From the IMG/VR virus record IMGVR_UViG_3300034410_000474, positions 17,575 to 81,574 of that record: a stretch of DNA of 64,000 nt. The stretch is one strand, 5' to 3'. The notes beneath the pieces were generated by a model that was not told where the DNA came from, made no database searches, and worked only from the letters and a program-made list of their open reading frames with translations. Within the stretch, counting starts at the first letter, position 1; each line of letters starts with the position of its first letter. Positions 982 through 51,753 of this stretch are shown here, in pieces. This DNA is from a virus. Taxonomy: Duplodnaviria > Caudoviricetes. Both the position numbers and the translations under genes were made by a program.

Positions 982-989
982 TATAAATA
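982..989 (+). promoter_or_regulatory. T4-type late promoter TATAAATA
   Basis: Exact consensus ahead of the 1026-4065 sugar-modification genes. Confidence 0.8.
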
Positions 990-1025
990 AACTAAACAAT
1001 CAATCTTTTATATTATGGAGGTGAC

Positions 1026-2072
1026 ATGCACGATTTGCATATGGGTGGCTTAGCGGCTTGGGCTTTGAAAAGAGGCGGGTCGCTCCATCCAATACTATTA
1101 CCAAAATCGGTAACCGGTAATGAAACCGGAATTATGAATCCGTCGATCTATTCCCACAAGGGAAAGCTTCTTCTTAACATAAGACATATCAACTATATTC
1201 TCTATCATTCAGAGGGTAAGCGGTTTCCACATCAATGGGGACCATTAGTCTATATTCATCCCGAAAACGACGTAACTTTAACAACTCATAACGTAATGTG
1301 TGAGCTTGACAATAACCTGAATCTTGCATCTGCTCAAAGAGTAGATATGGCTTTAGATACTGGCAAGCCTACGTGGAACTTTATTGGTTTAGAAGATGCT
1401 CGTTTATTTGAGTGGGATGATAAATTATATCTTTGTGGCGTACGAAGAGATTGTTATGATGATAAAGGTACAGGTCGTATGGAACTATGCCATATTGATC
1501 AAGTAGATGGTAAATGGACAGAGATTTCTCGACATCCTATTCCAGCTCCTGGTGATGATGGTTCTTTCTGCGAAAAGAATTGGATGCCTGTTTTAGATGA
1601 ACCTTATACTTTCGTTAAATGGTGTAACCCAACTCAAGTCGTTAAGTTTAATATTGAAGAAGGTACAACTGAAGTTGTATATGAAGATACTTCAGAACGT
1701 GCACCATTTGAAAAAGATTTCCGTGGTGGTTCACAAGTATTAAGATTAAACGATGACCAGCGCATGGCATTCGTACACGAAACAAATCTATTAAGAGATC
1801 CCTTTGGTCGTAAAGATGGTGACTATTCTCATCGCATATTGGTATGGGATAATGATTGGAACTTAATCCATGCATCTCGTAAATTTCATTTTATGGGTAC
1901 GTTCTTTGATCATGTAACAGGTATTGATTACAATATTGAGTTTGTTACTGGAATGTGCGTACATCCTGAAACTGGAGATATTCTGGTATCTTATGGATTC
2001 CAAGATAATGCTACGTTTATTTTAAGACTTCCTCATAAGTTGTTCTTAGACTTTTTGAATAGTAAGGTATAA
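1026..2072 (+). CDS. Beta-propeller glycoside hydrolase/phosphorylase-like protein (GH130-like)
   Basis: NPSI, GLEDARL, EKNWMP, RGGS, SYGFQD motifs; SD GGAGG. Confidence 0.6.
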   Translation: MHDLHMGGLAAWALKRGGSLHPILLPKSVTGNETGIMNPSIYSHKGKLLLNIRHINYILYHSEGKRFPHQWGPLVYIHPENDVTLTTHNVMCELDNNLNLASAQRVDMALDTGKPTWNFIGLEDARLFEWDDKLYLCGVRRDCYDDKGTGRMELCHIDQVDGKWTEISRHPIPAPGDDGSFCEKNWMPVLDEPYTFVKWCNPTQVVKFNIEEGTTEVVYEDTSERAPFEKDFRGGSQVLRLNDDQRMAFVHETNLLRDPFGRKDGDYSHRILVWDNDWNLIHASRKFHFMGTFFDHVTGIDYNIEFVTGMCVHPETGDILVSYGFQDNATFILRLPHKLFLDFLNSKV

Positions 2073-2074
2073 TT

Positions 2075-3307
2075 ATGAAATTTGATATAAAACTTTTAAA
2101 TGATGTAGTATTAGATTACGATAACCCCGATAAAATATACGCATTAGCAAGACAATACGATAAACTCGAACAAGGATCAGGAGCACATAGCTTTTATTTA
2201 AGAGCTGCTGATATGTCGCCAGGTAAAACCTTTGAGGAAAAATGGTTACAATATAAATGTATGATACTTTCTTCGATGATTTATCAAAGAAATGAAAATC
2301 GTAATCAAAGTGTTCAAGGATTATTAAAGATTGCAATTGCAACATTACCAAATAGACCTGAAGCTTATTACTTTATGGCTAAACTTAAAAGAGATCAAGA
2401 AGATTATCGTGAAGCAATAATGTATGCTCAAATAGGTATGCAGTTTGAAGGTCAAGAGTACCTTGATAACGATGTTGGTTATCCTGGTGATAATGCATTA
2501 AAAGTATTATATGCTCGTTGTAGATGGAAAACCGATGGTAGAGATGATTCAAAGAACCTTGCATTTGATTTAAAATATAAGAATAAATTAAACAAAAAAG
2601 ATGAAAAGGCTGTTAATGCTTTATTGGCAGAACACGGGTATCCAAGTACTCTTGCATATGACCCATCATTATTTGGTCAATATAAATTTAAGTTTGATGG
2701 CCAAGAAGATATAAAGACTAACTATTCTCGTCATTTCCAAGATATGTTTGTACTATCTGTATTAGATGGTAAGCGTGACGGTACCTTTATTGAAATCGGT
2801 TCTGGACATCCTGAGCTATTTAATAATACATTATTATTAGAAAGAGACTTTGGATGGCGTGGAATTAACATCGATAGTTCAGAAAGATTTGCTCATATAT
2901 TCTCAAGACATCGAAAAACTAATATGATCCATGCTGATGCAGCTGGTACAGATTATGGTACAGTATTTAAACAACAATGTTTAGAACAACATATAGATTT
3001 TTTAAGAATCAATTGTGAATATGCATCTATTGAAGCTTTAAAGAATATTCCGTTTGCTAAACACGAGTTTGGTATTATTCAGTTCCAGCATAACGCAACT
3101 TGGTGGGGAGATCAATTTAGAAAAGAATCTCGAGAGATACTGCAAAAGATCGGATATATACTATTAGTAAGTGATGTTGCAGTAGATAATACTCAAAACT
3201 ATGAAGATTGGTGGGTACATCCAATGCACGCAAATCGTAAACAAAATATGAAGTCTAGCAATAAGATAAACTTTGCTTGGGACTATATGATGGAGAATGT
3301 TAAATGA
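2075..3307 (+). CDS. TPR-repeat plus FkbM-like SAM methyltransferase fusion
   Basis: N-terminal helical repeats (PNRPEAYYFMAKL); C-terminal QDMFVL..LDGKRDGTFIEIG motif. Confidence 0.65.
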   Translation: MKFDIKLLNDVVLDYDNPDKIYALARQYDKLEQGSGAHSFYLRAADMSPGKTFEEKWLQYKCMILSSMIYQRNENRNQSVQGLLKIAIATLPNRPEAYYFMAKLKRDQEDYREAIMYAQIGMQFEGQEYLDNDVGYPGDNALKVLYARCRWKTDGRDDSKNLAFDLKYKNKLNKKDEKAVNALLAEHGYPSTLAYDPSLFGQYKFKFDGQEDIKTNYSRHFQDMFVLSVLDGKRDGTFIEIGSGHPELFNNTLLLERDFGWRGINIDSSERFAHIFSRHRKTNMIHADAAGTDYGTVFKQQCLEQHIDFLRINCEYASIEALKNIPFAKHEFGIIQFQHNATWWGDQFRKESREILQKIGYILLVSDVAVDNTQNYEDWWVHPMHANRKQNMKSSNKINFAWDYMMENVK

Positions 3308-4065
3308 AACCAGTATTGATAACAGGAGGATTTGATCCTCTACACTCAGGCCATATTGCATATATGAAAGCAGCTAAAGAACTTGGCTCTATTTTATATG
3401 TGGGTGTTAATTCTGATGAATGGTTAACTCGTAAGAAAGGTAGACCATTTATGTCACTCGAAGAAAGAATGGCAATTATTAAAGAGATTGGTTGTGTAGG
3501 ACACGTATTCTCATTTAATGATGATGACGATACTGCTATTAATGCTATCGAATATGTAAAGTATTCTGCTCCTCGTAACGCTGAAATCATTTTTGCAAAT
3601 GGTGGAGATCGTACAAAAGGTAATATCCCTGAAATGTTTAGTGGAGGAGATCAAGTAAAATTCGTATTTGGTGTAGGTGGAGATGATAAAAAGAATAGCT
3701 CATCTTGGATTCTAAACGAATGGGATAAACCTACTACTCAAAGACTCTGGGGTAAATATCGAGATCTTGATTCTAACGGTCATTGGAAAGTTAAAGAACT
3801 CTCTATTGATGTAACTAAATCTCTATCTGATCAACGACATTTTAAACGTTCAGAACATTGGCATATTGTTGATGGAGAGTTAAGAATGGAACTTGCGTTT
3901 GGAAATGGTTACTCAACTAATAAGATCTATAAAACTGGTGACAGTATCGATATTCCGATAAATACTTGGCATAAAGCAACTAATGTTGGAGACCGACCTG
4001 TCAAGGTTATTGAAGTTTGGATGGGTTCAGAACTATCTGAAGATGATATAGAAAGAAGATCTTAG
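3304..4065 (+). CDS. Cytidylyltransferase-like domain fused to cupin (mannose-6-P isomerase type II C-terminal-like)
   Basis: ITGGFDPLHSGH (HxGH), GVNSDEWL.RKKG, FANGGDR; C-terminal RLWG.Y, QRHFKRSEHW, IDIP..WH. Confidence 0.8.
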   Translation: MKPVLITGGFDPLHSGHIAYMKAAKELGSILYVGVNSDEWLTRKKGRPFMSLEERMAIIKEIGCVGHVFSFNDDDDTAINAIEYVKYSAPRNAEIIFANGGDRTKGNIPEMFSGGDQVKFVFGVGGDDKKNSSSWILNEWDKPTTQRLWGKYRDLDSNGHWKVKELSIDVTKSLSDQRHFKRSEHWHIVDGELRMELAFGNGYSTNKIYKTGDSIDIPINTWHKATNVGDRPVKVIEVWMGSELSEDDIERRS

Positions 4066-4089
4066 TAGTGTTTTAAGGATGATAATCCT

Positions 4090-4118
4090 ATTATACCATA
4101 GTTCATCGCGGGTGTCAA
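4090..4118 (-). promoter_or_regulatory. Sigma70-type promoter firing antisense into 3304..4065
   Basis: Minus strand TTGACA-CCCGCGATGAACTATGG(17)-TATAAT with extended -10 TG. Confidence 0.75.
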
Positions 4119-4127
4119 CTGTTATTT

Positions 4128-4135
4128 TATAAATA
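4128..4135 (+). promoter_or_regulatory. T4-type late promoter TATAAATA
   Basis: Exact consensus before ORF 4167. Confidence 0.8.
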
Positions 4136-4166
4136 TGTATAAATTAATCTATAAACAAAGGAGACG

Positions 4167-4577
4167 ATGATGGCTTTTCAGTTATCAGTAGCCGCAAGAA
4201 ACGCTACTTTAGCCGCGATCGAAACAGAAGTTGGTATTAACCCTATTTTAACCATCAATACTGGTACAAAACCTGCCGACGCAGCTACTGCAAACACAGG
4301 TTCAGTTCTAGCAACTATGGTTCTACCAAGTGATTGGTTGGGTGATGCTACTGCTGGATCTATTGCATTATCAGGTACTTGGCAAGATTTATCAGCCGAT
4401 GATTCTGGTACTGCTGGATATTTCAGATTGCATAATAACGCTGGCACAGTATGCCATATGCAAGGTACTATTACTGCCACAGGCGCTGGCGGAGATATGC
4501 AGTTGGATAATACTAACATTGCAACAGGTCAGCAAATTAATATTACCACGTTCACAATCACAGCTGGTGGGGCTTAA
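4167..4577 (+). CDS. Virion structural protein (Ala/Thr/Gly-rich)
   Basis: Late context, SD GGAG; ARNA.L...TG..P...SGTA.YFR pattern of small phage structural proteins. Confidence 0.55.
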   Translation: MMAFQLSVAARNATLAAIETEVGINPILTINTGTKPADAATANTGSVLATMVLPSDWLGDATAGSIALSGTWQDLSADDSGTAGYFRLHNNAGTVCHMQGTITATGAGGDMQLDNTNIATGQQINITTFTITAGGA

Positions 4578-4599
4578 CTTTAACATAAGGTAAAGCCAC

Positions 4600-5190
4600 A
4601 TGTCTGCAAATGGTGCTGTTACTACAACATTAGATTTTGAATACTTTGGCGGCGGCGTCATTCAAGTATCAGGAGAAGTATCAGGTTTAATTGATAATTC
4701 TTTTGTGTTTGATGGCCGCGTACCTGTTTTTGGTCACATCGAACCAGTTACTATTGACTTTGGATTTAGTGCTGGTATTGAAACACCTACAATTTATGGC
4801 ACCGTTGAAAATGCAAGCTTTGATTTTACCTCATATAGTTTTGTAGAGTTTGGTGTACAACGATATCTTTCAGTAGCAAATAACACATTATTTGATTATA
4901 GTGCTACTTCCGAAGGTTATGTTACAACTCACGTAAACTTTAATCCCACTTTAGACTTTAACATTGATACACACATCTATGTATTCTCATTAGGTGATGG
5001 TGAAGGCACGTATTCTTTCAGTGTTGAAGGATTAGGTTTAAATGTATCTACAAGAGAATATTCAAAAACTGGCGGAAACTATGTTACTTTTGATGGAATC
5101 GACAATAATGACTATAGAATAGTTGATTCAAAGAATGGAATTAAATTAATTAGCAACGGAATATCACAAGCTGATATCATACAGACATAG
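4600..5190 (+). CDS. Hypothetical virion protein, beta-rich
   Basis: ORF in late structural cluster. Confidence 0.5.
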   Translation: MSANGAVTTTLDFEYFGGGVIQVSGEVSGLIDNSFVFDGRVPVFGHIEPVTIDFGFSAGIETPTIYGTVENASFDFTSYSFVEFGVQRYLSVANNTLFDYSATSEGYVTTHVNFNPTLDFNIDTHIYVFSLGDGEGTYSFSVEGLGLNVSTREYSKTGGNYVTFDGIDNNDYRIVDSKNGIKLISNGISQADIIQT

Positions 5191-5242
5191 TTTGCTTTTA
5201 ATAAATATCTAATAAATAAAAGTAAAACTCGGAGATAAACAA

Positions 5243-5575
5243 ATGGCGGCTAGCTTTTACATAAAACAAAACGACACTGCACCGTCTATTGAGGCTGGCC
5301 TTACAGATTCTAACGGTAGAACTAAATCTATGGCCAATGCTTCTGCAGTTAAGTTTCATATGAAAGACGAGAATGGAAACATTCTTATCGAAAACGGTCT
5401 TGGAACTATTAAGAGTCCTACAAAAGGAATCGTTGCTTATGAATGGCAGACAGGAGATACTGCAAATTCTGGTATCCATAGTGCAGAATTCCAAGTAACG
5501 TATAATAACGGTCAAATCGAAACTTTCCCTAACACTGGTTATATTAAAGTAATCGTTAAAGACGAATTGGCTTAA
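5243..5575 (+). CDS. BppU-like (baseplate upper protein N-terminal domain) protein
   Basis: FYIKQNDTAP...VAYEWQTGDT...AEFQVTY.NG.IETFPN.GY. Confidence 0.65.
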   Translation: MAASFYIKQNDTAPSIEAGLTDSNGRTKSMANASAVKFHMKDENGNILIENGLGTIKSPTKGIVAYEWQTGDTANSGIHSAEFQVTYNNGQIETFPNTGYIKVIVKDELA

Positions 5576-5587
5576 AAGGAAAAACAA

Positions 5588-6331
5588 ATGGCACAACCAC
5601 AATCAAGAGAAGAATTTAAAGATTATATTTTAAGAAAAATCGGTGCACCAGTTATCGATATTAATGTGTCTGAGGAACAAGTTGAAGATCGTGTAGATGA
5701 AGCCGTTTCTTTTTGGAGAGATTATCACTATAACGGTAGTCAACAAGTATATCTTAAGCATCAACTTACAGCTCAAGATGTAGAGAATGGATATATTAAC
5801 TTACCGGCAGGATTGCTTGGTATTTCATCTATCTTTCCATTAGATACTTCTATTTCTACCGGTAGCGGAATATTTAACGTAAACTACCAATTCGTTTTAA
5901 ATAATCTTAATGATCTTACAGGTTATACAATTCAAAATTATTATATGACTATGTCGCACTTATCATTCTTACAAGAATGGTTAGTAGGCTTAGCTCCTAT
6001 TCGTTACAACAAACATGTAAACAAACTTTATATCGATGCTGGTAAAGCATCTTTCAGAGAAGGTAAGTATATCATCGTTGAAGCATATGATGTTATTGAT
6101 GAAGATGCTTATCCTGACGTGTGGGGAGATCGTTGGTTACAAAACTATTCATCAGTTCTTGTAAGAGAACAATGGGGTCTTAACCTTACTAAGTTCACTA
6201 ACATGCAGTTAGTTGGTGGCGTTAGCTTTAATGGCGAACAAATTCTGCAAGAAGCAAGAGCTGAAAGGGAAAAAATGGAAGAAGAAGCAATCCGGACTCT
6301 TCAACCTCTCGCCCACAATTTTATTGGATAA
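5588..6331 (+). CDS. gp13: Neck protein gp13
   Basis: PQSREEFKDYILRKIGAPVIDINV, WGLNLTKF, GGVSFNG; synteny. Confidence 0.92.
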   Translation: MAQPQSREEFKDYILRKIGAPVIDINVSEEQVEDRVDEAVSFWRDYHYNGSQQVYLKHQLTAQDVENGYINLPAGLLGISSIFPLDTSISTGSGIFNVNYQFVLNNLNDLTGYTIQNYYMTMSHLSFLQEWLVGLAPIRYNKHVNKLYIDAGKASFREGKYIIVEAYDVIDEDAYPDVWGDRWLQNYSSVLVREQWGLNLTKFTNMQLVGGVSFNGEQILQEARAEREKMEEEAIRTLQPLAHNFIG

Positions 6332-6334
6332 AAA

Positions 6335-7015
6335 ATGGCAACGAATTCGTACTTCAGAAATTACGACAATTTCAACGAGCAGAATCTAATTGACGACCTT
6401 GTAATCGAATCAATTAAAATCTATGGCGTTGATGTTAAATACCTGAGTGGTCAATTTAACAATGTTGATAAAATCTTTAATGAAGATGATACACCTCTTT
6501 ATGATGAGATGTATGGCTTTGAAGTATATGTGAAAAATGTCGATGGCTTCGAAGGTGAAGGAGATTTCTTATCTAAGTTTGGTTTACAAATAAGAGATCA
6601 AGTTACATTTACAGTCGCTATCAGAACATTTGAAAGATATGTTACTCGTAAAGATGCAGAAAAAGTACGACCAAGAGAAAACGATGTTATTTGGTTACCA
6701 CTTAATCAGAAAATGTATAGAATTACTTATGTAGAACATGAAAGCGTATTCTATCAATCTGGTAAGTTACAAGTTTACGATATTAAATGTGAACTTATGG
6801 AATACTCAAACGAAAGATTCGATACAGGCCGATACGAAATCGATCATTACTTTGATGATATTAAATCCACAACTGATGTTGTACAAACTCTTGAAGATGT
6901 TGCTAACAACGATCCAATTGCTCAGAACTTTGAATTCGAAAAATTAGCCGATGATATATTAGACTTTTCTGAAGTTGATCCATTCAGTGAAAACATTAGC
7001 ATAGAGGATTCATAA
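6335..7015 (+). CDS. gp14: Neck protein gp14
   Basis: EQNLIDDLVIESIKIYG, FLSKFGL, RPRENDVIW, DFSEVDPF. Confidence 0.92.
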   Translation: MATNSYFRNYDNFNEQNLIDDLVIESIKIYGVDVKYLSGQFNNVDKIFNEDDTPLYDEMYGFEVYVKNVDGFEGEGDFLSKFGLQIRDQVTFTVAIRTFERYVTRKDAEKVRPRENDVIWLPLNQKMYRITYVEHESVFYQSGKLQVYDIKCELMEYSNERFDTGRYEIDHYFDDIKSTTDVVQTLEDVANNDPIAQNFEFEKLADDILDFSEVDPFSENISIEDS

Positions 7016-9102
7016 TGGCTATTGCAAATTACTTTTATAATGAAACTACAAGACGATATGTAGCTTTATTCGGTACATTGTTTAATCAATTAAAGATTGA
7101 AAGAAACGATAATGCCGGTAACTTAGTACAGTCAATGATTGTACCATTGTCCTATGCACCATTCCAAAAAGTTATTTCAAGACTTAGAGAAGATCCTGAT
7201 CTATTAAACAGTACAAGACCTGCAATAAGCTTACCTCGTATGTCTTTTGAGATTACAAGCTTAAACTACGATCCACAACGTAAAATTGGATCTACTCAAA
7301 AGATGACAAAGAGACAAAAGCCAGAGTCTGAATCATCTCGTAATTTTGTACATGCTTCAGTACCATACAATATAGAATTTTCTTTGTACATTATGACTAA
7401 GTATTCAGAAGATGCTACAAAGATTATGGAACAAATTATTCCATTCTTTACTCCTGATTGGACTGTTACTGCTAAGATGGTTAACGATCTAGATCCAATC
7501 GATATTCCAATTATATTGAACTCAGTAACAACCGAAGACTTATATGAAGGTGACTACGAGTCACGTCAAACCATACTGTACACACTCACGTTTACTTTAA
7601 AAGGTTGGTACTTTGGACCAGAGAAGAAACAAAAAGTAATTAAGTTTATCGATATTGATATGATGACTGACACAGCATCAAATGCTCCTCGTCAAGAAGG
7701 CATTACTATTAAGCCAGGTTTAGATTCAAACGGTAATCCACTTACAGAAGATGGTATAGGCGTAACTGCGGTTGCAAACACTACGAATGGTACTATATCT
7801 GGTATTACAATTACAAATGACGGTGAAAACTATAATCCTAATAATGATATATCAGTAACTATTGCTGCACCTGATACATTAGATGCTAGCATTTCTCCAA
7901 ATATAGTAGACACTGAGATCACCTCGTTCACCATAAATGAAGGTGGAGGGTACTACTCTAGCCTGCCAAGTATTACTATAAGCGAGCCAGATATGCCTGT
8001 AACCAATGCTACGGCTTCACAGCAACTATCTGGAAGCACCATTGGATCAATCACAATAGATGAAGGTGGTACATATTATAACTCAGCAGGTATTACGATA
8101 TCAGAACCACCTGCAAAATCTCCCTATGTTAAATTTGGAGATGACGCTTTATATCACGCTAATCATACTGACACTACAACCTTACATACAACTGGAATCA
8201 ACTTCGTAACTGCTGGTAGTGGTTATGCTATCGAGTTTTGGATATATCCAACAGAATTCCACGCAAACGATAATGTTATTCTGCATATGCAAGGTAATAA
8301 TATGAGAATCGAAATTGAAAACGGAACTCTTGCATTATTCTATGCGACAGGTGGAGCACCTTGTAGATCTACACCAGAAGTAATAGTCCTTAATCAATGG
8401 AATCATTGTCGTGTTGAACACTTTGGTGCAACGGCAAGATGGTTAGTAAACGGTGTAGCAGATGATGGTACTTCAGGACCACAAGGATTCTTACTTGGTG
8501 GTGGAGCAACTGTTGTTGCCGGTGAACGTTCTGCAAATGAAAGATCTTTCCTAGGTGCTTTGGATAATATTACTATCGGTACAATTAGTTCATTAACACC
8601 TGCAGGAACATATACAATACCAACAACTCCACAAAGTGGTGGAGACTATACTGGTAACTTTGATAAAGATATCGCAACTGCCGATGTTGTAGTTACAAAT
8701 GGAGAAGTAGTTTCTGCTACTATAACTAATCCTGGCTCAAACTATGATGCCAATACAGTAATTACAATTACAGCACCAGATTCTACTCCTGCTAATTTCC
8801 AAGCATCAGTTACTCCAGTTCTTACCGACGGAACAGTAAGTGGAATAACGATAAATAACAGTGGTAGGTTCTATGCTACGGCTAATGTTTCAATATCATC
8901 TGCTGTTGCTAATACTGCTACTGCAGAAATAGTAATAGACGGAACAGGACAAGCAAGTGCGATTAACGTAACAAATGCTGGTTCTGGATATAGAACACCT
9001 CCTGTAGTTACAATCGGCGGACCTGCTGCAACATCAGTTCCATATACACAAATTGAATTTGATGACGACTGGGGTATTATTACGATATTTGAGGATGCAT
9101 AA
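7015..9102 (+). CDS. gp15: Tail terminator/sheath stabiliser gp15 with about 425-aa internal insertion (repeats + LamG-like domain)
   Basis: YFYNETTRRYVALFGTLFN, VPLSYAP, LPRMSFEI, QIIPFFTP; conserved DDDWG tail retained at C-terminus. Confidence 0.9.
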   Translation: MAIANYFYNETTRRYVALFGTLFNQLKIERNDNAGNLVQSMIVPLSYAPFQKVISRLREDPDLLNSTRPAISLPRMSFEITSLNYDPQRKIGSTQKMTKRQKPESESSRNFVHASVPYNIEFSLYIMTKYSEDATKIMEQIIPFFTPDWTVTAKMVNDLDPIDIPIILNSVTTEDLYEGDYESRQTILYTLTFTLKGWYFGPEKKQKVIKFIDIDMMTDTASNAPRQEGITIKPGLDSNGNPLTEDGIGVTAVANTTNGTISGITITNDGENYNPNNDISVTIAAPDTLDASISPNIVDTEITSFTINEGGGYYSSLPSITISEPDMPVTNATASQQLSGSTIGSITIDEGGTYYNSAGITISEPPAKSPYVKFGDDALYHANHTDTTTLHTTGINFVTAGSGYAIEFWIYPTEFHANDNVILHMQGNNMRIEIENGTLALFYATGGAPCRSTPEVIVLNQWNHCRVEHFGATARWLVNGVADDGTSGPQGFLLGGGATVVAGERSANERSFLGALDNITIGTISSLTPAGTYTIPTTPQSGGDYTGNFDKDIATADVVVTNGEVVSATITNPGSNYDANTVITITAPDSTPANFQASVTPVLTDGTVSGITINNSGRFYATANVSISSAVANTATAEIVIDGTGQASAINVTNAGSGYRTPPVVTIGGPAATSVPYTQIEFDDDWGIITIFEDA

Positions 9103-9575
9103 TGAGCGACGAAAAGATTTCTTCTGCACTTGGGATTAGGCCAATGTCAGAAATAGATGAAGATGAAAAGAATGTTCCAGTAGTAGCAAAGGCTACTGAA
9201 GACAAAGCATTACCTGCTGTTGTCTCTGAGCAAGATGATGAGAACTTAGAAGATATCGAAGCTGTAAGAAAAAATGTTGCAGACGTTATTGAAACAGGTA
9301 AAGATGCAATGATGGAAATGCTAGAAATTGCAAAACAATCTGAACAACCTCGAGCATTCGAAGTAGTTTCTACTTTAATGAAAACTCTTCTCGACGCCAA
9401 CAAAGATTATGCAGACATATCAACTAAAAAGAAGTTTGCTAAAGAAGAAATAAACGCTCCCAAAGAAGCAGCCCAAACAAACACTGTAAATAATAATCTA
9501 ATCGTATCGACAGCAGATTTACTTAAGATGCTGAAAGATCAGAAACCGGACGATGATGGTGTAATAGATGGGTGA
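9102..9575 (+). CDS. gp16: Terminase small subunit gp16
   Basis: PRAFEVVSTLMK, NNNLIVSTADLLKML; synteny. Confidence 0.88.
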   Translation: MSDEKISSALGIRPMSEIDEDEKNVPVVAKATEDKALPAVVSEQDDENLEDIEAVRKNVADVIETGKDAMMEMLEIAKQSEQPRAFEVVSTLMKTLLDANKDYADISTKKKFAKEEINAPKEAAQTNTVNNNLIVSTADLLKMLKDQKPDDDGVIDG

Positions 9576-11163: not shown

Positions 11164-11171
11164 AAAGCTCA

Positions 11172-11202
11172 TATAAATAGCAAATCGAGTAATTTATAAA
11201 TA
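11172..11202 (+). promoter_or_regulatory. Two tandem late promoters TATAAATA (11172-11179, 11195-11202)
   Basis: Exact consensus twice before gp18. Confidence 0.8.
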
Positions 11203-11259
11203 GAAACAGTTATAACAATTAAATTAAAACGCGTTTCTAATTAAATAAAGGAGAAAAAC

Positions 11260-13209: not shown

Positions 13210-13236
13210 TAAATATATTTAAAAGGAGAAAGCAAC

Positions 13237-13770
13237 ATGGCATTTAACATCAATCAGTTCAAATCAGAACTTGTCGGTGGCGGTGCACGTCCTACGCTCT
13301 TCCAATGTCAGATCACCAACCCAGTTAATACAGCTGCCGATATTAAAGTGCCATTTATGGTACGGGCAGCTGGAATTCCTGAGTCCACAGTAGGTCAATA
13401 CACCGTACCTTACTTTGGACGTCAGGTTAAGTATGCTGGCGATAGAACATTTGCAGACTGGACAGTAACCGTAATCAACGACGAAGACTTCGCTATAAGA
13501 AACGCAATGGAAGAGTGGATGAACTTCATTAACTCTCATGATTCAAACGCAAGAGGTTTACCTCAACAGTACAAATCTAACGGGCAAATTACCCAGTTTA
13601 GTAAAGATGGTTCGCCATTACGTACTTATGTTTTTGAAGGCATGTTCCCTATTGCTATCGATGGCATTCAGATGGATTGGTCCGCCACCGATTCTATCGA
13701 AGAATTTAGTATTACATTCCAATATGATTTATGGAGAGTTGAAGGTAATACTGGCGTACCAACTACATAA
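13237..13770 (+). CDS. gp19: Tail tube protein gp19
   Basis: GGARPTLF, YFGRQVKYAGDRTFADW, IEEFSITFQY. Confidence 0.96.
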   Translation: MAFNINQFKSELVGGGARPTLFQCQITNPVNTAADIKVPFMVRAAGIPESTVGQYTVPYFGRQVKYAGDRTFADWTVTVINDEDFAIRNAMEEWMNFINSHDSNARGLPQQYKSNGQITQFSKDGSPLRTYVFEGMFPIAIDGIQMDWSATDSIEEFSITFQYDLWRVEGNTGVPTT

Positions 13771-13797
13771 TTTATTATATAATGTGAGGAATGAAAA

Positions 13798-15375: not shown

Positions 15376-15411
15376 ATATAATCAAATTAAACCAAATTTA
15401 GGAGATTCCCA

Positions 15412-16524: not shown

Positions 16525-16526
16525 AA

Positions 16527-16769: not shown

Positions 16770-16776
16770 AAAGAAT

Positions 16777-16784
16777 TATAAATA
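16777..16784 (+). promoter_or_regulatory. Late promoter TATAAATA
   Basis: Exact consensus before gp21. Confidence 0.8.
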
Positions 16785-36037: not shown

Positions 36038-36066
36038 ATAATAAACTATGTAGATGTAATTGTCAA
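36038..36066 (-). promoter_or_regulatory. Promoter of rnh overlapped by 9-bp inverted repeat
   Basis: TTGACA-N17-TATTAT; ATCTACATA(36025-36033)/TATGTAGAT(36047-36055). Confidence 0.7.
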
Positions 36067-42946: not shown

Positions 42947-43654
42947 TTACCCTGCCGTGTCGGCCATTTGTGTAAGTTTATTATATGTGTCACGCCAATC
43001 TTTTACGTGATAATTCTTTCCACGTTTGTTTGCTTTTGCCAGTGGATAGTCATTACCGCCTGGCTCCATTTTGTCTCCAAAGAAACGAATATCATCGTCT
43101 TCATTAAAGTCTTCTAAAATTTGTCTTTTGTCGCCGCCAGTTCTACCGATATCTATACCAGTTTCACCACCAACAGTTGCGGTAATATTTTCGAATTCAG
43201 AATTAATTTGATATGCAATACTCTCGCGTTCACGGTTTAATTCATCATACTTAACATATTCAGCTCTTTCATCCATAGTCGCATTACGACCAACTATAGA
43301 AAAGTTCCACATACCTCTTCTTTTTTCGATATGATTACCTGTTCTAAGAGGAAATAAACTTGCTTGCAACCAACCAAGTAATAAATTCTCTAAGTCTTTT
43401 GGTGCAGTAAACGACTTAGTGTTAACCCGTTTACCGCGATGCCATACGTCATTACCTTGACAGTTATAGCAAGTTACTACGTTTTCGCATATCTCTGGAC
43501 CAAGCTGCTCGAGTGTTTTATCGTAGTCACTACCAGTAACTAACCAAACACTATTTTTGCTTATAAAGTCTACAAACCATAATCTAAATTCTTCGTCAAT
43601 TCTACTTCTGCTTGGTGTAAGTGTTCCATCGACGTCGAAAACGTATCTTATCAT
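42947..43654 (-). CDS. HAD-IIB (eukaryote-type) phosphomannomutase-like enzyme
   Basis: FDVDGTLTPSR, LVTGSD, HIEKR.GM.NFSI.GRN, GGETGIDI, FFGDKMEPGGNDYPL. Confidence 0.88.
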   Translation of the reverse strand: MIRYVFDVDGTLTPSRSRIDEEFRLWFVDFISKNSVWLVTGSDYDKTLEQLGPEICENVVTCYNCQGNDVWHRGKRVNTKSFTAPKDLENLLLGWLQASLFPLRTGNHIEKRRGMWNFSIVGRNATMDERAEYVKYDELNRERESIAYQINSEFENITATVGGETGIDIGRTGGDKRQILEDFNEDDDIRFFGDKMEPGGNDYPLAKANKRGKNYHVKDWRDTYNKLTQMADTAG

Positions 43655-44021: not shown

Positions 44022-44304
44022 AATTGATTCCTAACCAGTTTCCTATTTTTGTTTTTAACCAACCAGATTCTTGTTTAAGTACAAGACCATAATCAGTTAC
44101 TTTTAAAATCTCTTCACCAGCAACATTTATTGAAACATCATTATATGTTATATCGTCAATAGCATACGTATTAAGAGTTCCAATTTGCATGTTCATATTA
44201 TATGAGTAAGTAAGGCCGTTTTCGGTTCCTGAATAGTCTAAAGGTAATTCGATCTGCTCAGGATAGAGATCGTAAAATTTAAATTCCATTTGTTTATTAA
44301 ACAT
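44011..44304 (-). CDS. Hypothetical protein
   Basis: Start at 44304 preferred (short overlap with upstream stop). Confidence 0.5.
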   Translation of the reverse strand: MFNKQMEFKFYDLYPEQIELPLDYSGTENGLTYSYNMNMQIGTLNTYAIDDITYNDVSINVAGEEILKVTDYGLVLKQESGWLKTKIGNWLGINYEK

Positions 44305-44707
44305 GTTCGCATACCCTTTGTCTGAGATCGCTTGAACTAAATCTATGATCTCGTTTATTGAAATAGAGATCAATATCGCGTTTGCGGCAAATATCTTTAC
44401 CAGTAAACTCTTTATCTCTATACTCTTCTCCTAATATTCTAACATCAATATCGAGCATTGTCAATATGTCTTCGACATCTTTTTCACAATTATATGGAAT
44501 AATTTCATCAACATAACGAACACCATTAAGTTGTGTATAGCGTTCTACAATTGTTTGAACAGGAGCTTTTTTATCATCACGATCTTGACTTGGATCCATT
44601 TGTAATCCACAGATAAGATAATCACATTGAGATTTTGCTTCTCTTAACATCGATACATGTCCAGCATGTAATAGATCAAAGGTACTAAATGTAATCCCTA
44701 CAATCAT
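44297..44707 (-). CDS. Glycerol-3-phosphate cytidylyltransferase-like (TagD-like)
   Basis: TFSTFDLLHAGH, ERY.QL...YVDEIIPY, GEEY, FSSSDLR. Confidence 0.88.
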   Translation of the reverse strand: MIVGITFSTFDLLHAGHVSMLREAKSQCDYLICGLQMDPSQDRDDKKAPVQTIVERYTQLNGVRYVDEIIPYNCEKDVEDILTMLDIDVRILGEEYRDKEFTGKDICRKRDIDLYFNKRDHRFSSSDLRQRVCEHV

Positions 44708-45438
44708 GATTGAATCCTCTTATTATAATCTATTGCCTCACTAATAATAGACAAATCGCAACTTATTCTTTTTGCAGATTCGACTATGGCCGCAGTATCT
44801 TTTGGAAAGCAATGCCCACCAAAACCACGTTCATCGGTAACTTTACTGTGGCTGTCACCAATGCGCCTATCTTTAGTTATAAAACGAGCAACTTCGTGAT
44901 AGCTAATATCAGACTTTTCGCATAAATCATAAACTTGATTAAAGAAAGCAACTTTAGTAGCTAAGAAACTATTGCGCATATACTTAGCAACAATCAAAGC
45001 TTCAGGAGTTCCAACCTCTACATCTACATTAAGACGTTCAGCTAAAAGTGTACTCCAAAAAGAAATGTTACCACCACCAATATAAACAACGTCTTGATTC
45101 TTAAAATCTTCCAATGCATTTTGAGCACGTAAGAACTCAGGTGAAAATGTAATTGATCTATCAGGAAACATTCTTTGTATTTCAGACCAGCCTTCGAGAG
45201 ATATAGTACTTTTGATTAGAATAGGAGCATCAGGAGACATTTGTATTGCATCATAAACGTTCTCCATATAACATGCTCCGGTTCTACTTTCTGGAGTACT
45301 TACTGCAATAATTACAGCATCTGCATATTGATTAATATCTTTAGAACCTAATGCAGGATCATACACATGATAATCGTCCGAGAATGCTAATGCATGTGCT
45401 CTACCTACGAAACCATATCCAAAAATCTGTACCTTCAC
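44704..45438 (-). CDS. Short UDP-glucose/GDP-mannose dehydrogenase-family protein (probable GTG start)
   Basis: GYGFVG, IKST, SPEFLR, KY..NSFLATKV.FFN, GFGGHCFPKD; lacks usual C-terminal domain. Confidence 0.85.
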   Translation of the reverse strand: MKVQIFGYGFVGRAHALAFSDDYHVYDPALGSKDINQYADAVIIAVSTPESRTGACYMENVYDAIQMSPDAPILIKSTISLEGWSEIQRMFPDRSITFSPEFLRAQNALEDFKNQDVVYIGGGNISFWSTLLAERLNVDVEVGTPEALIVAKYMRNSFLATKVAFFNQVYDLCEKSDISYHEVARFITKDRRIGDSHSKVTDERGFGGHCFPKDTAAIVESAKRISCDLSIISEAIDYNKRIQS

Positions 45439-45758
45439 GTGATAATCCAATCAATATCCATAATATTCTTTGGTTGTTCATCCATAGGAATAAAAAGATC
45501 ATGCTCATAATTCTTTATTACAGCCCACCCATACGATGTTGCGCCATAAGAATCTTTCCAACACTCATAGGTTGAGCCTGAATGACCATCAAAGTAATAC
45601 TTTTCATCGTCTTCAGTTACTTTTACGACACCAGAGTTTAATCTCCAGTCGTCGCCATTAAAGGGATTACCTTTTATCCAAGTACCAAACACTCTATAAT
45701 GAGGATCAGTTCCTTCGATCTTTACAAGCATCCATTTGTCTGGTCTGTATTTACTCAT
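45435..45758 (-). CDS. Conserved phage hypothetical protein
   Basis: PDKWMLVKI, WRLNSG, GHSGSTYEC. Confidence 0.7.
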   Translation of the reverse strand: MSKYRPDKWMLVKIEGTDPHYRVFGTWIKGNPFNGDDWRLNSGVVKVTEDDEKYYFDGHSGSTYECWKDSYGATSYGWAVIKNYEHDLFIPMDEQPKNIMDIDWIIT

Positions 45759-48264: not shown

Positions 48265-48498
48265 TTAATTTAAGTTATTTAACATATTTTTTAGGCGCCA
48301 AAGAAGGGTTTTTGTCTCTACAGTGTCATTCCAACACTCATCTCGTGACGTTATATCAGTTAAAAGTTCTTTTAACATCATATTTTCCTGCCTCAGAGCA
48401 TCATTATCTCTGAGAGCAGATTGTTTATCTTTCTTATGATGGTCTATTTCGAGCTGTAGACCTTCAACCGTTCTTTCGTTTATTTTTACCTTTGCCAT
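48265..48498 (-). CDS. Small coiled-coil protein
   Basis: Heptad-like ORF overlapping upstream gene end. Confidence 0.55.
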   Translation of the reverse strand: MAKVKINERTVEGLQLEIDHHKKDKQSALRDNDALRQENMMLKELLTDITSRDECWNDTVETKTLLWRLKNMLNNLN

Positions 48499-50059
48499 TT
48501 GGCTTCACCACTCCATACTTCTTAAAGAATGCGTAATCACTTGCGTATGCGCGTTTAATAAATTCGATTTGTTCTTCTGAAAAGTCATCAGCAGTAATCT
48601 CTTTATTAGTAACGTTATGAGCTACATCGATATCAAAGAACTCATTAACATCTTCACGTTTTACTACTTCAAATTCATCAAAGTTTTCAGTATCAACAAA
48701 TCTGCATTGTGGATGGAAATGATGTACTTGATGTCCACCAGTAATCTTATTTAAATTACGGAAGAACAAATCAATCTTTTCTTCTTTTGAGAGTAAAGTT
48801 AAATCCTTATCGAAAGAAGAGAAGATGTCTCTACCATAATCATAATAACGTTGTTTTGGAGTTAAGTAAACATTTATTAATGAGATGAAACGATCGATTG
48901 GATCAGTAAAAATCATAATAGGTTTTTTGTTTTCTTTAATCAATGTATTATAGAGTCTTGTTCCACGCATTACTTGAATACGCTTTGGATAACTTTCTTT
49001 AATAGTTACTGAACAAGATCGTGGGACTTCAAACCAAAGCTTTTCGTGATTGTTTTCAAGATCATACATTAACGGCCATTCTAACTTTTGGCACCAATAA
49101 CAATTACAATCGTTAAATGCATATGTTGAATTAATATCTACTTCAGGTAATAAGAAATCTTTTACAAACGGTGTATCAAAAATAAGATCAGGTAATAGGC
49201 TATGCGGATAGCGTTTAAGTATATGGTCAGTATTACTATCAGGAGCAATATTACCTTCAACAGGTTCTGTAGTATCTACGAATTGTTTATAATCTGCATA
49301 TCCACCTTCACTATGCCATTTAAAGCTATCGAATGCATGAGCAAACGAATCAGCTTTTGTTTGGCGTTGTTGTGACGATCCCATCCATGCAAAGTGCCAA
49401 CCCATATCTTCTTGAATAATACCTTGATTTGTTGGAAACCGAATTGGAATGCTAATGTTACCACATCGAATATTACTTAGTTTGCAATGTAACAATTGTT
49501 CTTTTGTTGCAAAGAACATAGCACGTTTCCATATAACCGGTACATCATTTCTATGGTGGATACGTAAATCAGCACGACCTTGTAGATATACTAATGGAAT
49601 TTTAATTATAATGTTTGGATGATTGTGGCATTGTTGTGCTACCCATTTAATATGCTTTGGATCGATAATCTCATCTGCATCTCCATAAATGAATACGTCA
49701 CGCTTATCAAAATCACGTAAGGCATTCATTACAGCATCTTTTTGCAAACGTTCTCTTACTCTAGCATATAGAGATTCTTTGTTATTAGCATTTACACCTG
49801 CGTTTCTTCGATCAATTTCGAGTATTTCGAGATCTTCTGTTTCAGGAATATCATGCTCTACATAGATAATCTTTTCAATCGGTAGTCCAAGTTTACGAGC
49901 AACTTCAGGAAATTTGCGATCTACATCTTTACCAGCATGTGTCTTATTTGACTCAACGATAATAAACTTATCTACATGTTCTTTTAATAAGTTAACACGT
50001 AAATAGAGTAGCTCTTCTCCATAGGGAGCAAACCAAGGAAAACAATCTACAATCTTCAT
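48464..50059 (-). CDS. GT17 (GnT-III-like) glycosyltransferase fused to a sulfotransferase-family-2 domain
   Basis: N-terminal VDCF..ELL.LR..L..VDKFIIVES, DADEI, GWHFAWMG; C-terminal VPRSCSVTIK, FTDPIDRFIS, HFHPQ, Y.SDY.FF. Confidence 0.78.
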   Translation of the reverse strand: MKIVDCFPWFAPYGEELLYLRVNLLKEHVDKFIIVESNKTHAGKDVDRKFPEVARKLGLPIEKIIYVEHDIPETEDLEILEIDRRNAGVNANNKESLYARVRERLQKDAVMNALRDFDKRDVFIYGDADEIIDPKHIKWVAQQCHNHPNIIIKIPLVYLQGRADLRIHHRNDVPVIWKRAMFFATKEQLLHCKLSNIRCGNISIPIRFPTNQGIIQEDMGWHFAWMGSSQQRQTKADSFAHAFDSFKWHSEGGYADYKQFVDTTEPVEGNIAPDSNTDHILKRYPHSLLPDLIFDTPFVKDFLLPEVDINSTYAFNDCNCYWCQKLEWPLMYDLENNHEKLWFEVPRSCSVTIKESYPKRIQVMRGTRLYNTLIKENKKPIMIFTDPIDRFISLINVYLTPKQRYYDYGRDIFSSFDKDLTLLSKEEKIDLFFRNLNKITGGHQVHHFHPQCRFVDTENFDEFEVVKREDVNEFFDIDVAHNVTNKEITADDFSEEQIEFIKRAYASDYAFFKKYGVVKPNGKGKNKRKNG

Positions 50060-50062: not shown

Positions 50063-50662
50063 TTACTTCCTTCTTTCTAGTATAGTTAAACCATTACAAT
50101 TTTGTTTGTGCTTTCTAAATTTCCATTGAGGATTAGCGATAATGAACTCAATAATAGCAGGTAATAATCCTTGATTATCCATTGCTTTACGATTAGGATT
50201 TGCAGCCCAATCAACTTGCTCATCACGTACTCCATATGTATGAGTATCGTGAAATGCTAGATATTTACGAGCAGCATTACCGTGCAATTTAAGTTCTTCT
50301 CTTAATTGCTGTTGGCTGTGCCAAGTATCAATAAAGATTAAGTCGGTTGGCTCAATAAGAATACTCAGCGTATTTGCTTTAACATATTCTACATCTTTAC
50401 CAACCTTCTTAGCAATTTTGAATAGATTCATTAGAGGATCGTGTATTTCAAGATCATATGCTCTTAATGATACAGGCGCTTTAAGAAATGCTTTTGTACT
50501 TGCACCAAAACGACTGCCAAACTCAGTAACGTGAGTACAATCTTCTGCAAGAGTTAATAAGTCGTGAAGATGTTCATCAATATCTGACTTAGTACTCTTT
50601 TCTTTTTGATACTCATTTTCTATGAGTTCGTTCCATTCACTTAAATTCATACGTCTAACCAC
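50063..50662 (-). CDS. Class I SAM-dependent methyltransferase (Methyltransf_24-like)
   Basis: VTEFGSRFGAST, DLIFIDTWHS, FHDT. Confidence 0.85.
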   Translation of the reverse strand: MVRRMNLSEWNELIENEYQKEKSTKSDIDEHLHDLLTLAEDCTHVTEFGSRFGASTKAFLKAPVSLRAYDLEIHDPLMNLFKIAKKVGKDVEYVKANTLSILIEPTDLIFIDTWHSQQQLREELKLHGNAARKYLAFHDTHTYGVRDEQVDWAANPNRKAMDNQGLLPAIIEFIIANPQWKFRKHKQNCNGLTILERRK

Positions 50663-51672
50663 CTTCTATTTTCTAATGTCCAAGTTACAACTTCAGCGAT
50701 ACGTTGATCAACTGGTCTCGGGGTCCATCCCATCTTTGCCATTCGTTCACCAGAGAGAGCATAACGAAGGTCGTGACCAGGGCGACTACTGTGGAAATCC
50801 ATGAATTCATACTTTAACTCCTTGCCTTGTGCATCGGCAATCATTTGTGCGAGTTCTAAATTGTTCAATTCAGTCGCACCACAGATATTGAACTTAGGAC
50901 ATTTAACACCGGTATTATTTTCAATGTTAAGAGTATCAGTATGTTCTAATAAGAACAGTGTAGCATCAGCAACATCTTCGGCATGAATATAATGTCGTGA
51001 TCCTGGTATTGTTTTTGTTTCATCACTGTGAATAGTTACCGTACCACCATCTCGTACATTACGAATAGTCATAGGGATAAACTTTTCTGGATGCTGTCGT
51101 TCACCAAATACGTTCATTGTATGCGTAATATAAATTGGCATATCATAAGTATTTTGGTAAGCTACTGCTAATTCCTCTCCACCAGCTTTAGATGCTGAGT
51201 AAGGATTAGTTGAATTATAACGATCATATTCGTCGTACTTAATACCTTCAGGAGCAGGACCAAAGACTTCATCAGTTGAGAAGTATAGGAAGCGTTCCAA
51301 GTTAGGTTGTTTACGAGCAAATTCTAGAATGTTACATGTACCAACAACGTTATCCATTACGAATTCCATTGGATGGTCAATTGAACGATCTACGTGAGAG
51401 CCTGCTGCCAAATGAGCAACAATATCAACGTCACCAATATCTGCTAAGAGCATTGGATTAAATTCTGCTTTTAAATCGTGAAAGATTGTACGAAGACGTG
51501 AACGTTCTTCAGGGGTGCGATCTTGTAAAAGATCATGTAATCTGTTTAGGTTACCACTATAATCTAAACGATCTACAGTAACGATATCCCAATCAGTTCT
51601 TTTGAGTACCTGGTTGATTAAGTGATGGGCAATAAAGCCACCGCCACCAGTAATAAGTATTTTCTTAGCCAT
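50647..51672 (-). CDS. NDP-sugar 4,6-dehydratase (RmlB-like extended SDR)
   Basis: ITGGGGFIAHH, HLAAGSHVDRS, STDEVFG, YSASK, RPGHDLRY. Confidence 0.92.
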   Translation of the reverse strand: MAKKILITGGGGFIAHHLINQVLKRTDWDIVTVDRLDYSGNLNRLHDLLQDRTPEERSRLRTIFHDLKAEFNPMLLADIGDVDIVAHLAAGSHVDRSIDHPMEFVMDNVVGTCNILEFARKQPNLERFLYFSTDEVFGPAPEGIKYDEYDRYNSTNPYSASKAGGEELAVAYQNTYDMPIYITHTMNVFGERQHPEKFIPMTIRNVRDGGTVTIHSDETKTIPGSRHYIHAEDVADATLFLLEHTDTLNIENNTGVKCPKFNICGATELNNLELAQMIADAQGKELKYEFMDFHSSRPGHDLRYALSGERMAKMGWTPRPVDQRIAEVVTWTLENRRWLDV

Positions 51673-51706
51673 TATATCTCCGTCATCAATAACATTTTGT
51701 AAAAGT

Positions 51707-51734
51707 ACTCCATAGATCCGAAAACCTATGGAGT
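51707..51734 (-). other. 12-bp UUCG hairpin between late promoter and epimerase gene
   Basis: ACTCCATAGGTT-TTCG-GATCTATGGAGT followed by ACTTTT. Confidence 0.75.
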
Positions 51735-51745
51735 GTTGTTAACTT

Positions 51746-51753
51746 TATTTATA
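51746..51753 (-). promoter_or_regulatory. Late promoter TATAAATA
   Basis: Exact consensus immediately after porin stop. Confidence 0.75.

Follow-up and report, generated by a model that had tools for sequence, protein, structure and literature searches.

A putative late glycan-tailoring pathway with a predicted glycosyltransferase-sulfotransferase fusion in an uncultured marine T4-like phage

Marine T4-like phages carry sets of glycan genes, including glycosyltransferases, rfaE-like genes, UGD, TagD, the GH130 'MGP' and epimerases (Zaragoza-Solas et al., 2020, PMC7029224; S-SCSM2R, PMC12801897). Here we describe such a set in a 64-kb window (the whole stretch of DNA analysed) of IMG/VR record IMGVR_UViG_3300034410_000474, an 81.6-kb viral contig with a completeness rating of 38%. 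At its centre are two operons headed by T4-type late promoters, one of which encodes a GT17 glycosyltransferase fused to a predicted sulfotransferase domain. The published sets of pelagimyophages and cyanomyophages resemble it in lineage type, gene classes and placement (scattered clusters of two to three genes, in the fibre or host-recognition region), and both ORF194/195 of S-SCSM2R and a gene pair of phage DSL-LC02 are direct homologues of the window's genes for a 348-aa protein and a TPR-methyltransferase. Sulfotransferases go unmentioned in both papers (PMC7029224, PMC12801897), which interpret the genes as host-surface modification, without timing data; as a rule, the glycan genes of marine myophages are classed, with no evidence given, as 'auxiliary' genes acting on the host surface. 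Phage sulfotransferases have been listed with 'function unclear' (PMC10580990), and a phrase search of the literature on phage-encoded sulfotransferases gave nothing relevant. We found no description in the literature of the GT17-sulfotransferase fusion, of the kinase pair discussed below, of the late-promoter organisation or of the fusions that link the gene blocks.

Mimiviruses and chloroviruses encode their own glycosylation, including the mimivirus collagen hydroxylase-glycosyltransferase. They have virus-encoded nucleotide-sugar and transferase genes in common with the window, among whose relatives collagen-like fibres adjoin a GT-A-DUF6445 fusion; these are, however, giant viruses of eukaryotes, and their enzymes are unrelated. 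For mycobacteriophages, glycans on capsid and tail-tube C-termini have reportedly been demonstrated by experiment (Freeman et al., 2023, PMC10527164, as cited in other papers). Phage glycosyltransferases near structural genes and cytoplasmic action on particle proteins would be common to both systems, whereas the window's enzymes (GT17, GH130-like) belong to unrelated families, arms for methylation and sulfation come on top, and the system is known here from its genes only.

We suggest that the window encodes one coherent glycan-tailoring pathway, split across several transcription units, with a phage protein as its acceptor. This is our leading guess, at a probability of roughly 40% and thus well under even odds. 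Early-type operons would supply precursors through a phosphomannomutase (PMM), a truncated UDP-glucose/GDP-mannose dehydrogenase-like (UGD-like) protein with a TagD-like partner, and a GT4 glycosyltransferase, and a kinase resembling adenosine 5'-phosphosulfate (APS) kinase, together with a nucleotidyltransferase partner, may make APS or 3'-phosphoadenosine 5'-phosphosulfate (PAPS). Transfer and tailoring would fall to two late operons: operon (a), in the fibre/neck module, with two small proteins, a GH130-like enzyme, a TPR-FkbM-like methyltransferase and a cytidylyltransferase-cupin, and operon (b), with an RmlB-like dehydratase, a CmcI/Methyltransf_24-like methyltransferase, the GT17-sulfotransferase and a 77-aa protein. 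Judging the sugars by family names only, the product would be a glycan with an O-methylated 6-deoxyhexose and/or a mannose-type sugar, plus a hexosamine that one polypeptide, the GT17-sulfotransferase, would add and then sulfate. Synthesis would be cytoplasmic and late in infection, and the acceptor would be a phage-made particle protein (fibre, neck or decoration), as in mycobacteriophage virion glycosylation. A far more specific version, in which a sulfated O-methylated glycan is added late to fibre or neck proteins of abundant marine T4-likes by the fusion and its partners, with the donor made by a miniature PAPS synthase whose 140-aa NadM-like sulfurylase is of an undescribed type, seems unlikely to us.

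A preliminary description of this DNA had listed the gene blocks of such a system, and all of them were found at their positions. Profile hidden Markov model (HMM) searches confirmed its nucleotide-sugar and transferase families (PMM, truncated UGD-like, TagD-like, cytidylyltransferase-cupin, RmlB-like, GT4 and GT17), and the fusion that it proposed is upheld by motifs, family matches among homologues and a predicted fold. The two methyltransferases and the GH130-like propeller fared less well: their homologues lean to the families named, but all matches are sub-threshold, and GH130 is a lead only.

The source is an uncultured marine T4-like myophage. Its capsid protein shares 61-65% identity with the capsid proteins of Sinorhizobium phiM12-like phages, Methylophilales phage Melnitz, Pelagibacter phage HTVC008M and cyanomyophages. 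T4-type late genes occupy the + strand of positions 1-19955 (neck gp13/14, gp15 with a LamG insertion, terminase, sheath, tube, portal, prohead protease, scaffold and gp23), and replication and auxiliary genes the - strand of 20039-64000 (RNase H, ligase, SHMT, PhoH, nrdAB, an aminotransferase-family gene, thymidylate synthase and DHFR), most of them behind near-consensus TTGACA-N17-TATAAT promoters. The motif TATAAATA occurs 15 times in the window, against 8.1 +/- 2.9 copies expected from shuffling. Seven of its eight + strand copies are intergenic and lie 39-65 nt before a gene start (84 nt for the copy at 134), and of the 17 + strand copies of its core, ATAAATA, in the first 20 kb (1-20 kb), 13 stand in short gaps preceding structural genes. 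Since the + strand copies cluster in this way, TATAAATA behaves as the late promoter of this phage. Both tailoring operons begin at an exact copy, as had been described: at 982-989(+), 44 nt before the start at 1026, and at 51746-51753(-), 81 nt before the start at 51672, with a hairpin between. Another copy, at 134-141(+), precedes two small paralogues (start 218) that head the first late unit.

The promoter of operon (b) is conserved. Upstream of the RmlB homologue in 37 distinct relatives, ATAAATA is present in 35 and exact TATAAATA in 14, and none has a sigma70-like promoter. Control genes in the same loci keep sigma70-like promoters (22/38 for a cell-wall hydrolase, 19/27 for primase), and operon-internal genes there have neither element. 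This is good evidence that the genes for the dehydratase, methyltransferase, GT17-sulfotransferase and 77-aa protein form a conserved, presumably late, unit. We also considered whether TATAAATA before the dehydratase is a mere stop-rich AT stretch and rejected this, given the conservation of the core and its absence from other intergenic regions of the same loci. PMM, the UGD-like and TagD-like proteins, GT4 and the kinase cassette sit instead in early-type operons headed by TTGACA-N17-TATAAT promoters. The claim that the whole synthesis is timed late thus holds, as far as promoters tell, for the two tailoring operons and not for these genes.

The fusion gene of operon (b) (48464-50059, -) encodes 531 aa, which HMM matches, motifs and a fold model divide into a GT17 (GT-A) domain, a CxCxxC linker and a Sulfotransfer_2-like domain (residues ~330-520). 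The GT17 half matches PF04724 with 30.3 bits (cut-off 26) over residues 16-151, contains a DADE motif with D127 and D129 invariant in 21 sequences, and resembles GT-A structures (VIA-align Z up to 11.8, Foldseek E 3.5e-6). Structure searches with the whole fusion (Foldseek, VIA-align) returned GT-A enzymes only, and a sequence-profile search of the PDB with the whole fusion found nothing; the C-terminal domain was modelled on its own. Against Pfam PF03567 the window domain has no match at E<=10 and the phage's own genome (38% complete) none at E<=0.01, but 8 of 20 homologous isolated domains match, the best with E 5.1e-5.

The motifs of this C-terminal region are strongly conserved. In 21 full-length homologues (55-92% identical), WFExPRSCSVT, DPxxRFxS and HQxHHFHPQ are invariant in the C-terminal 200 residues, the first two reading WFEVPRSCSVT (the 5'-phosphosulfate-binding loop) and DPxDRFIS (3'-phosphate-binding) in the window. 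P346, R347, S348, T352, P387, R390 and S393 are invariant both in these sequences and in the 20 domain sequences. The window domain has a variant of the PAPS motifs, in which Arg replaces Lys and Thr replaces the first Arg; Arg in the 5' loop is presumably as in PRSGTT-type tyrosylprotein sulfotransferases. In the domain model (pLDDT 85), the 17 best VIA-align matches among 48,161 chains are all sulfotransferases, led by heparan-sulfate 2-O-sulfotransferase 3f5f (Z 7.3, rmsd 6.0, 174 residues aligned; a Z below 8 is moderate), and most rows listed by Foldseek are also sulfotransferases, in weak agreement (best E only 0.04). With Sulfotransfer_2 enzymes such as 3f5f the domain thus shares its predicted fold and two PAPS-binding motifs, including the 3' motif DPxxRFxS. 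It differs from them in being only ~200 residues long and sub-threshold in Pfam, and in its fusion behind GT17 through the CxCxxC linker. In our view the C-terminal half is a divergent, minimal domain of sulfotransferase fold that has both PAPS motifs and a predicted sulfotransferase activity.

The sulfotransferase-domain family is a small one: among 1.84 billion proteins it has 107 representatives at E<=1e-3, most of which stand alone at ~200 aa. Relatives of the fusion are encoded by 118 IMG/VR stretches. A collection of 50,697 phages contains no record with the sulfotransferase domain and none with the full fusion, and at motif level 185,579 prokaryote genomes gave a single match to the fusion, on a 10-kb contig of a metagenome-assembled genome (MAG). 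The fusion thus appears to be essentially phage-only. Its near-absence from prokaryote genomes at motif level also argues against recent capture of a host O-antigen gene.

Upstream of the fusion gene, operon (b) encodes the RmlB-like nucleoside-diphosphate-hexose 4,6-dehydratase (50647-51672, -; PF16363 161 bits, PF01370 168 bits). With 242.8 bits it falls under the equivalog cut-off of TIGR01181 (365), and by its matches it is a clear member of the extended short-chain dehydrogenase/reductase dehydratases/epimerases. Next comes a 199-aa class I S-adenosylmethionine (SAM) methyltransferase (50063-50662, -), putatively Methyltransf_24 or rhamnosyl O-methyltransferase/CmcI-like; among the members scanned, 15 have Methyltransf_24 and three rhamnosyl-O-methyltransferase/CmcI matches, all sub-threshold (best E 3e-4). 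The 77-aa protein, of no known family (48265-48498, -), overlaps the end of the fusion gene and follows it in 61 of 77 related loci.

Operon (a) is headed by the two small paralogues (218-980, +; 138 and 108 aa, phrog_7802), which invariably precede the tailoring trio in close relatives. The trio begins with the 348-aa GH130-like or beta-mannosyltransferase-like protein (1026-2072, +). It has no PF04041 match itself, and one homologue has a sub-threshold match (E 0.004); GH130 is found in 32-37% of the members of its Atlas neighbours, and homologues in cultured phages are annotated as MGP or beta-mannosyltransferase. A sequence-profile search of the PDB with the 348-aa family gave no GH130 and no other meaningful match. 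The second gene encodes the 410-aa TPR and FkbM-like methyltransferase (2075-3307, +; motifs IEIGSG and IDFLRINCE), and the depositors of two cultured cyanophages (S-SCSM2R and DSL-LC02) labelled the homologues of both proteins likewise. The third encodes a cytidylyltransferase-like domain joined to a mannose-6-phosphate-isomerase-type cupin (3304-4065, +; PF01467 4.6e-15, PF01050 5.1e-22), with partial matches to TIGR02199 and TIGR01479. The operon lies inside the virion module, as had been described, between a phrog_3758 'virion structural protein' gene (4167-4577) and neck genes.

Several lines of evidence connect the two late operons. Gene fusions in relatives join GT17 to the cytidylyltransferase-cupin, SAM methyltransferases, TPR or DUF6445. 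In a distant lineage, twelve loci show the order 348-aa homologues, methyltransferase, GT17, cytidylyltransferase-cupin, gp13, gp14. A complete 218-kb phage of this lineage has the glycan genes of that order as a five-gene operon, which begins at an ATAAATA directly after a 1972-aa collagen fibre gene; a second ATAAATA and a gene for a 1718-aa protein come after its end. In some nine other loci, the genes for the 348-aa protein, GT17 and the 410-aa protein stand side by side. On the strength of these fusions and merged operons in distant phages, the two late operons would belong to one pathway. Around the window's own arrangement, the order small paralogues, 348-aa gene, 410-aa gene, cytidylyltransferase-cupin, virion proteins and gp13-gp15 is kept in more than 55 loci, and the second operon with its neighbours in 50-60 of 77 (upstream nrdA, an ALA-synthase-like gene and DUF454; downstream a hydrolase, UGD-like, TagD-like and PMM). 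Conservation of these neighbours may reflect no more than shared ancestry, which makes the tie of the early genes to the pathway weaker than that between the late operons.

Those early genes are all on the - strand. The PMM (42947-43654) is eukaryotic-type (PF03332, E 5.5e-32). The UGD-like gene (44704-45450) encodes the N-terminal and central domains only, lacking the C-terminal nucleotide-sugar-binding domain and keeping the GGHCFPKD Cys motif; its end is overlapped by 4 nt by the start of the gene for the 136-aa TagD-like cytidylyltransferase (44297-44707; PF01467, E 1.3e-13). UGD-like is found in 51 and TagD-like in 61 of the 77 related loci, usually adjacent, and the pair may form a two-protein enzyme. 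The GT4 glycosyltransferase gene (36063-37028) is in an early-type operon.

The donor for sulfation would come from a - strand cassette that encodes an APS-kinase-like P-loop kinase (22139-22582; 147 aa, PF01583, with a shortened C-terminal third), a small DUF2061 membrane protein (21915-22142; E 6.5e-12) and a 140-aa HxGH nucleotidyltransferase (21496-21918; motifs GRWQPWHDGH and ISATKIR). The kinase scores 34.2 bits against PF01583 (cut-off 21.1), limited to residues 3-82, and 27 bits against the NCBIfam equivalog TIGR00455 (cut-off 138.7). Among solved structures, its family profile finds at least 25 APS kinases (E 1.7e-12 to 1e-5), aligned over positions 3-84, and other kinases at the P-loop only. 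D32, R35, F43, R48, Q51, R54, F73, V74 and P76 are invariant in nine sequences, down to 48% identity, and presumably line the APS site as in the solved enzymes. The C-terminal lid region is absent, with no match past about residue 94. The profile of the nucleotidyltransferase is nearest, among solved structures, to NadM-type nicotinamide mononucleotide (NMN) adenylyltransferases (E 1.6e-8) and matches no ATP sulfurylase at E<=1; the protein scores 17.5 bits against the ATP sulfurylase family PF01747, under the cut-off of 24.3 and over the HxxH stretch only. The preliminary description had called the cassette a sulfate-activation block; its three members are present, but the HxGH enzyme resembles NadM and not ATP sulfurylase, and it may nonetheless work like a sulfurylase. 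In bifunctional PAPS synthases (animal PAPSS1/2; Sat-CysC fusions) an APS-kinase-type domain is likewise followed by an HxxH-superfamily nucleotidyltransferase, whereas the phage nucleotidyltransferases have 120-140 aa and are NadM-like rather than Sat-like, the kinase lacks the usual lid, and PAPS synthesis by the pair is a prediction.

DUF2061 is missing between kinase and nucleotidyltransferase in one relative (G001), where the two are adjacent, and among longer proteins containing DUF2061 we found no APS-kinase fusion (two matches only, one of them fused to RgpF). The kinase and nucleotidyltransferase form one fused gene of ~245 aa in Xylella phages Sano, Salvo and Bacata, in Xanthomonas and Stenotrophomonas phages and in Clavibacter phage 33 (PHROG 10255, depositors' label 'kinase'; for example L079 3992-4729 and L080 4001-4732). 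Adjacent in relatives and fused in other phages, the two probably act together, and we put the odds that they make PAPS or APS at about even. The expectation that kinase and fusion co-occur across relatives, raised in the preliminary description along with that of the late promoter, met with mixed results. Besides the promoter core before the RmlB operon, five contigs (G000, G001, G006, G008 and G009) have both kinase and fusion, but two phages are discordant: in Xylella phage Sano we found the fused pair and no Sulfotransfer_1, _2 or _3 match, and in a 77%-complete relative two sulfotransferase genes and no kinase. Stenotrophomonas phage DLP6 combines the fused pair with a Sulfotransfer_2 gene, and the sole complete relative whose GT17 is without the sulfotransferase domain has no kinase and one weak stand-alone Sulfotransfer_2 match. 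These counts rest mostly on contig fragments, 15-77% complete.

A phage-protein acceptor is favoured by the recurrent fibre/neck placement, the TPR fusions, the lack of an export gene in the window, the late promoter and the phage-only family. The trio stands between virion genes in more than 55 loci, and embedding among fibre and neck genes recurs in three lineages. In the cultured cyanophage DSL-LC02 the 348-aa/410-aa pair lies between collagen-like and tail-fibre genes, and collagen fibres adjoin the glycan operon both there and in L066. The TPR-GT17 and TPR-methyltransferase architectures suggest a protein partner. A simple hydropathy scan of the window revealed no multi-pass membrane protein (a candidate flippase, polymerase or transporter), and all the enzymes are predicted to be soluble.

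Other observations weigh against this acceptor, or against the pathway as a whole. The ATAAATA core is likewise conserved before a SegE-like GIY-YIG endonuclease (22/22) and nrdA (11/20), as well as before a 165-aa protein (14/18 relatives); the non-glycan sites with a conserved late core lie in the window regions 38242-38652(-), 57917-57966(-) and 60900-60992(-), and the window's nrdA copy of the motif overlaps the end of the thymidylate-synthase-family gene. With the same motif before nrdA and the SegE-like endonuclease, late timing is no proof of a virion role, and the earlier argument from timing to virion decoration does not stand. The promoter of operon (b) is also distant from its gene and followed by a terminator-like hairpin. 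Distant phages (L154-L162) have the 348-aa/410-aa pair among phoH, nrd and exonuclease genes, and in S-SCSM2R the pair follows nrdAB and ligase. The GH130, FkbM and Methyltransf_24 assignments are sub-threshold, acceptor and glycan are both deduced from gene content, and the unseen 62% of the genome could hold export genes or a DNA-modification route. Finally, such genes have been read as modifying the host O-chain or cell wall (PMC7029224, PMC12801897).

In that published reading (PMC7029224, PMC12801897), which concerns the glycosyltransferases that pelagimyophages and cyanomyophages encode in their host-recognition cluster, the host envelope is remodelled. Here, the enzymes would act on host lipid-linked intermediates (O-chain, capsule or glycoprotein) and mask receptors late, which would keep progeny off debris or block competing phages. 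Genes beside fibres in the host-recognition region fit receptor-linked functions as well as they fit fibre modification, the precursor genes are early, and both in the window and in 14 of 77 loci the gene just upstream of the late operon encodes a porin-like outer-membrane protein with a signal peptide. The genes for transfer and tailoring, however, keep a late promoter and never a sigma70-type one, and the exclusion functions known to us, such as T4 imm and sp, are early. The hydropathy scan also left the window without a flippase, polymerase or transporter, and no initiating transferase was seen there; the fusion, moreover, has no counterpart at motif level in the prokaryote genomes bar the one MAG contig. 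Envelope remodelling is a strong rival, somewhat less probable to us than a phage-protein acceptor, and the remaining probability goes to other acceptors. Alternatively, the product might be attached to neither virion nor envelope, as a soluble or intracellular oligosaccharide or glycoconjugate with methyl and sulfate groups, akin to the polymethylated polysaccharides or sulfated metabolites of mycobacteria, or the enzymes might modify a non-structural phage or host protein. The predicted solubility of all the enzymes and the variable placement in distant phages would suit this, and a GH130-like enzyme with PMM could, from GH130 phosphorylase chemistry, build mannosides from mannose-1-phosphate without a lipid carrier. 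Yet no phage precedent is known, and the recurrent fibre/neck adjacency and conserved late promoter also speak against such a product, which we regard as rather improbable.

It is quite possible, though short of an even chance, that the blocks are not one system at all, with the kinase pair serving nucleotide- or NAD-type metabolism and the sulfotransferase, if active, using host PAPS. This would accord with the NadM-like profile of the nucleotidyltransferase, with the discordant Sano and 77%-complete relative, with the size of the kinase family (>7,900 clusters, against 179 for the fusion family) and with the position of the pair in an early operon 26 kb away. Yet the kinase keeps the APS-kinase motifs D..R, F[ST]...R..Q..R and FVxP, its matches to APS kinases extend well past the P-loop, and the order of kinase and nucleotidyltransferase mirrors that of animal PAPS synthase. 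The five contigs with both kinase and fusion, DLP6, and the complete relative that lacks the kinase along with the sulfotransferase domain on GT17, despite its weak stand-alone match, likewise tie the pair to sulfation. Attachment of the sugars to phage DNA we judge very improbable. Phage glycosyltransferases are known to decorate DNA (reviewed in literature including PMC12801897), and SHMT, DHFR and a thymidylate-synthase-family gene are present. The transferases, however, appear to be late, after the onset of replication, and no hydroxymethylase-type gene was recognised in 81 kb. The order of the DHFR, thymidylate-synthase-family, nrdA and nrdB genes is presumably that of T4 frd-td-nrdA-nrdB, and we know of no sulfation or O-methylation of DNA-linked sugars, both of which also count against a DNA acceptor.

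Modification of a particle protein by a single pathway remains our preferred reading. To the published gene sets, the present analysis adds a conserved late promoter, fusions that link the pathway, an apparently phage-only glycosyltransferase-sulfotransferase fusion and a recurrent fibre/neck placement, and the question of what these genes are for comes down to two testable options, a decorated virion or a remodelled host. Sulfated or methyl-glycosylated particles, if real, would matter for adsorption, grazing and aggregation, and for what becomes of viral carbon and sulfur in the sea; to our knowledge, no tailed phage has so far been described with a sulfated glycan. Of cultured phages, the cyanophages S-SCSM2R and DSL-LC02 offer an experimental entry to the GH130-like and TPR-methyltransferase pair, not to the sulfotransferase.

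The leader of operon (b) has a structure of its own. A 12-bp hairpin (51708-51733, -; -16.5 kcal/mol, z -2.4) separates the late promoter from the start of the dehydratase gene. At the same position, many relatives form a hairpin from a different sequence, and in those without one the late motif stands at about -40. Upstream of RmlB in relatives (L001-L060) there is also a highly conserved leader, ACAATGTTATTGATGACGGAGATAT(A/T)ATG, readable as a mini open reading frame (ORF) ending on the start codon. The hairpin and leader may constitute a structured 5' leader or a partial terminator.

Within the fusion, the CxCxxC motif (49093-49108(-), residues 318-323) that joins the GT17 domain to the sulfotransferase domain is invariant, as is another Cys in the PRSCS loop; these cysteines could form a metal or redox site. 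Many GT17 homologues (P0089-P0122) have DUF6445 in place of the sulfotransferase domain, and one such GT17-DUF6445 fusion (L066 9998-11569) is one operon away from the 1972-aa collagen fibre gene. Directly upstream of the late dehydratase operon, a 320-aa protein (51755-52717, -) has a signal peptide and a C-terminal ...YNF, with no Pfam or PHROG match; from these features it looks like an outer-membrane beta-barrel or porin.

Among possible acceptors, the collagen-repeat tail-fibre protein (29359-31335, -) is a candidate only, its membership of the system being a guess. Its gene (29359-31760 region) is on the 'early' strand, behind phoH, and copies of TATAAATA occur nearby at 33238-33245 and at 31475-31482, the latter within the preceding ORF. 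The 695-aa gp15 (tail sheath stabiliser; 7015-9102, +) has a LamG/ConA-like lectin domain at residues 396-521, C-terminal to the gp15 domain, and also a weak, sub-threshold match to sheath domain I. Convergent with gp23, a gene for a 250-aa protein of no known family (20039-20791, -) has ATAAATA 54 nt upstream, and its homologue directly follows the genes for the GT17-sulfotransferase and 77-aa protein in three relatives (L008, L010 and L051).

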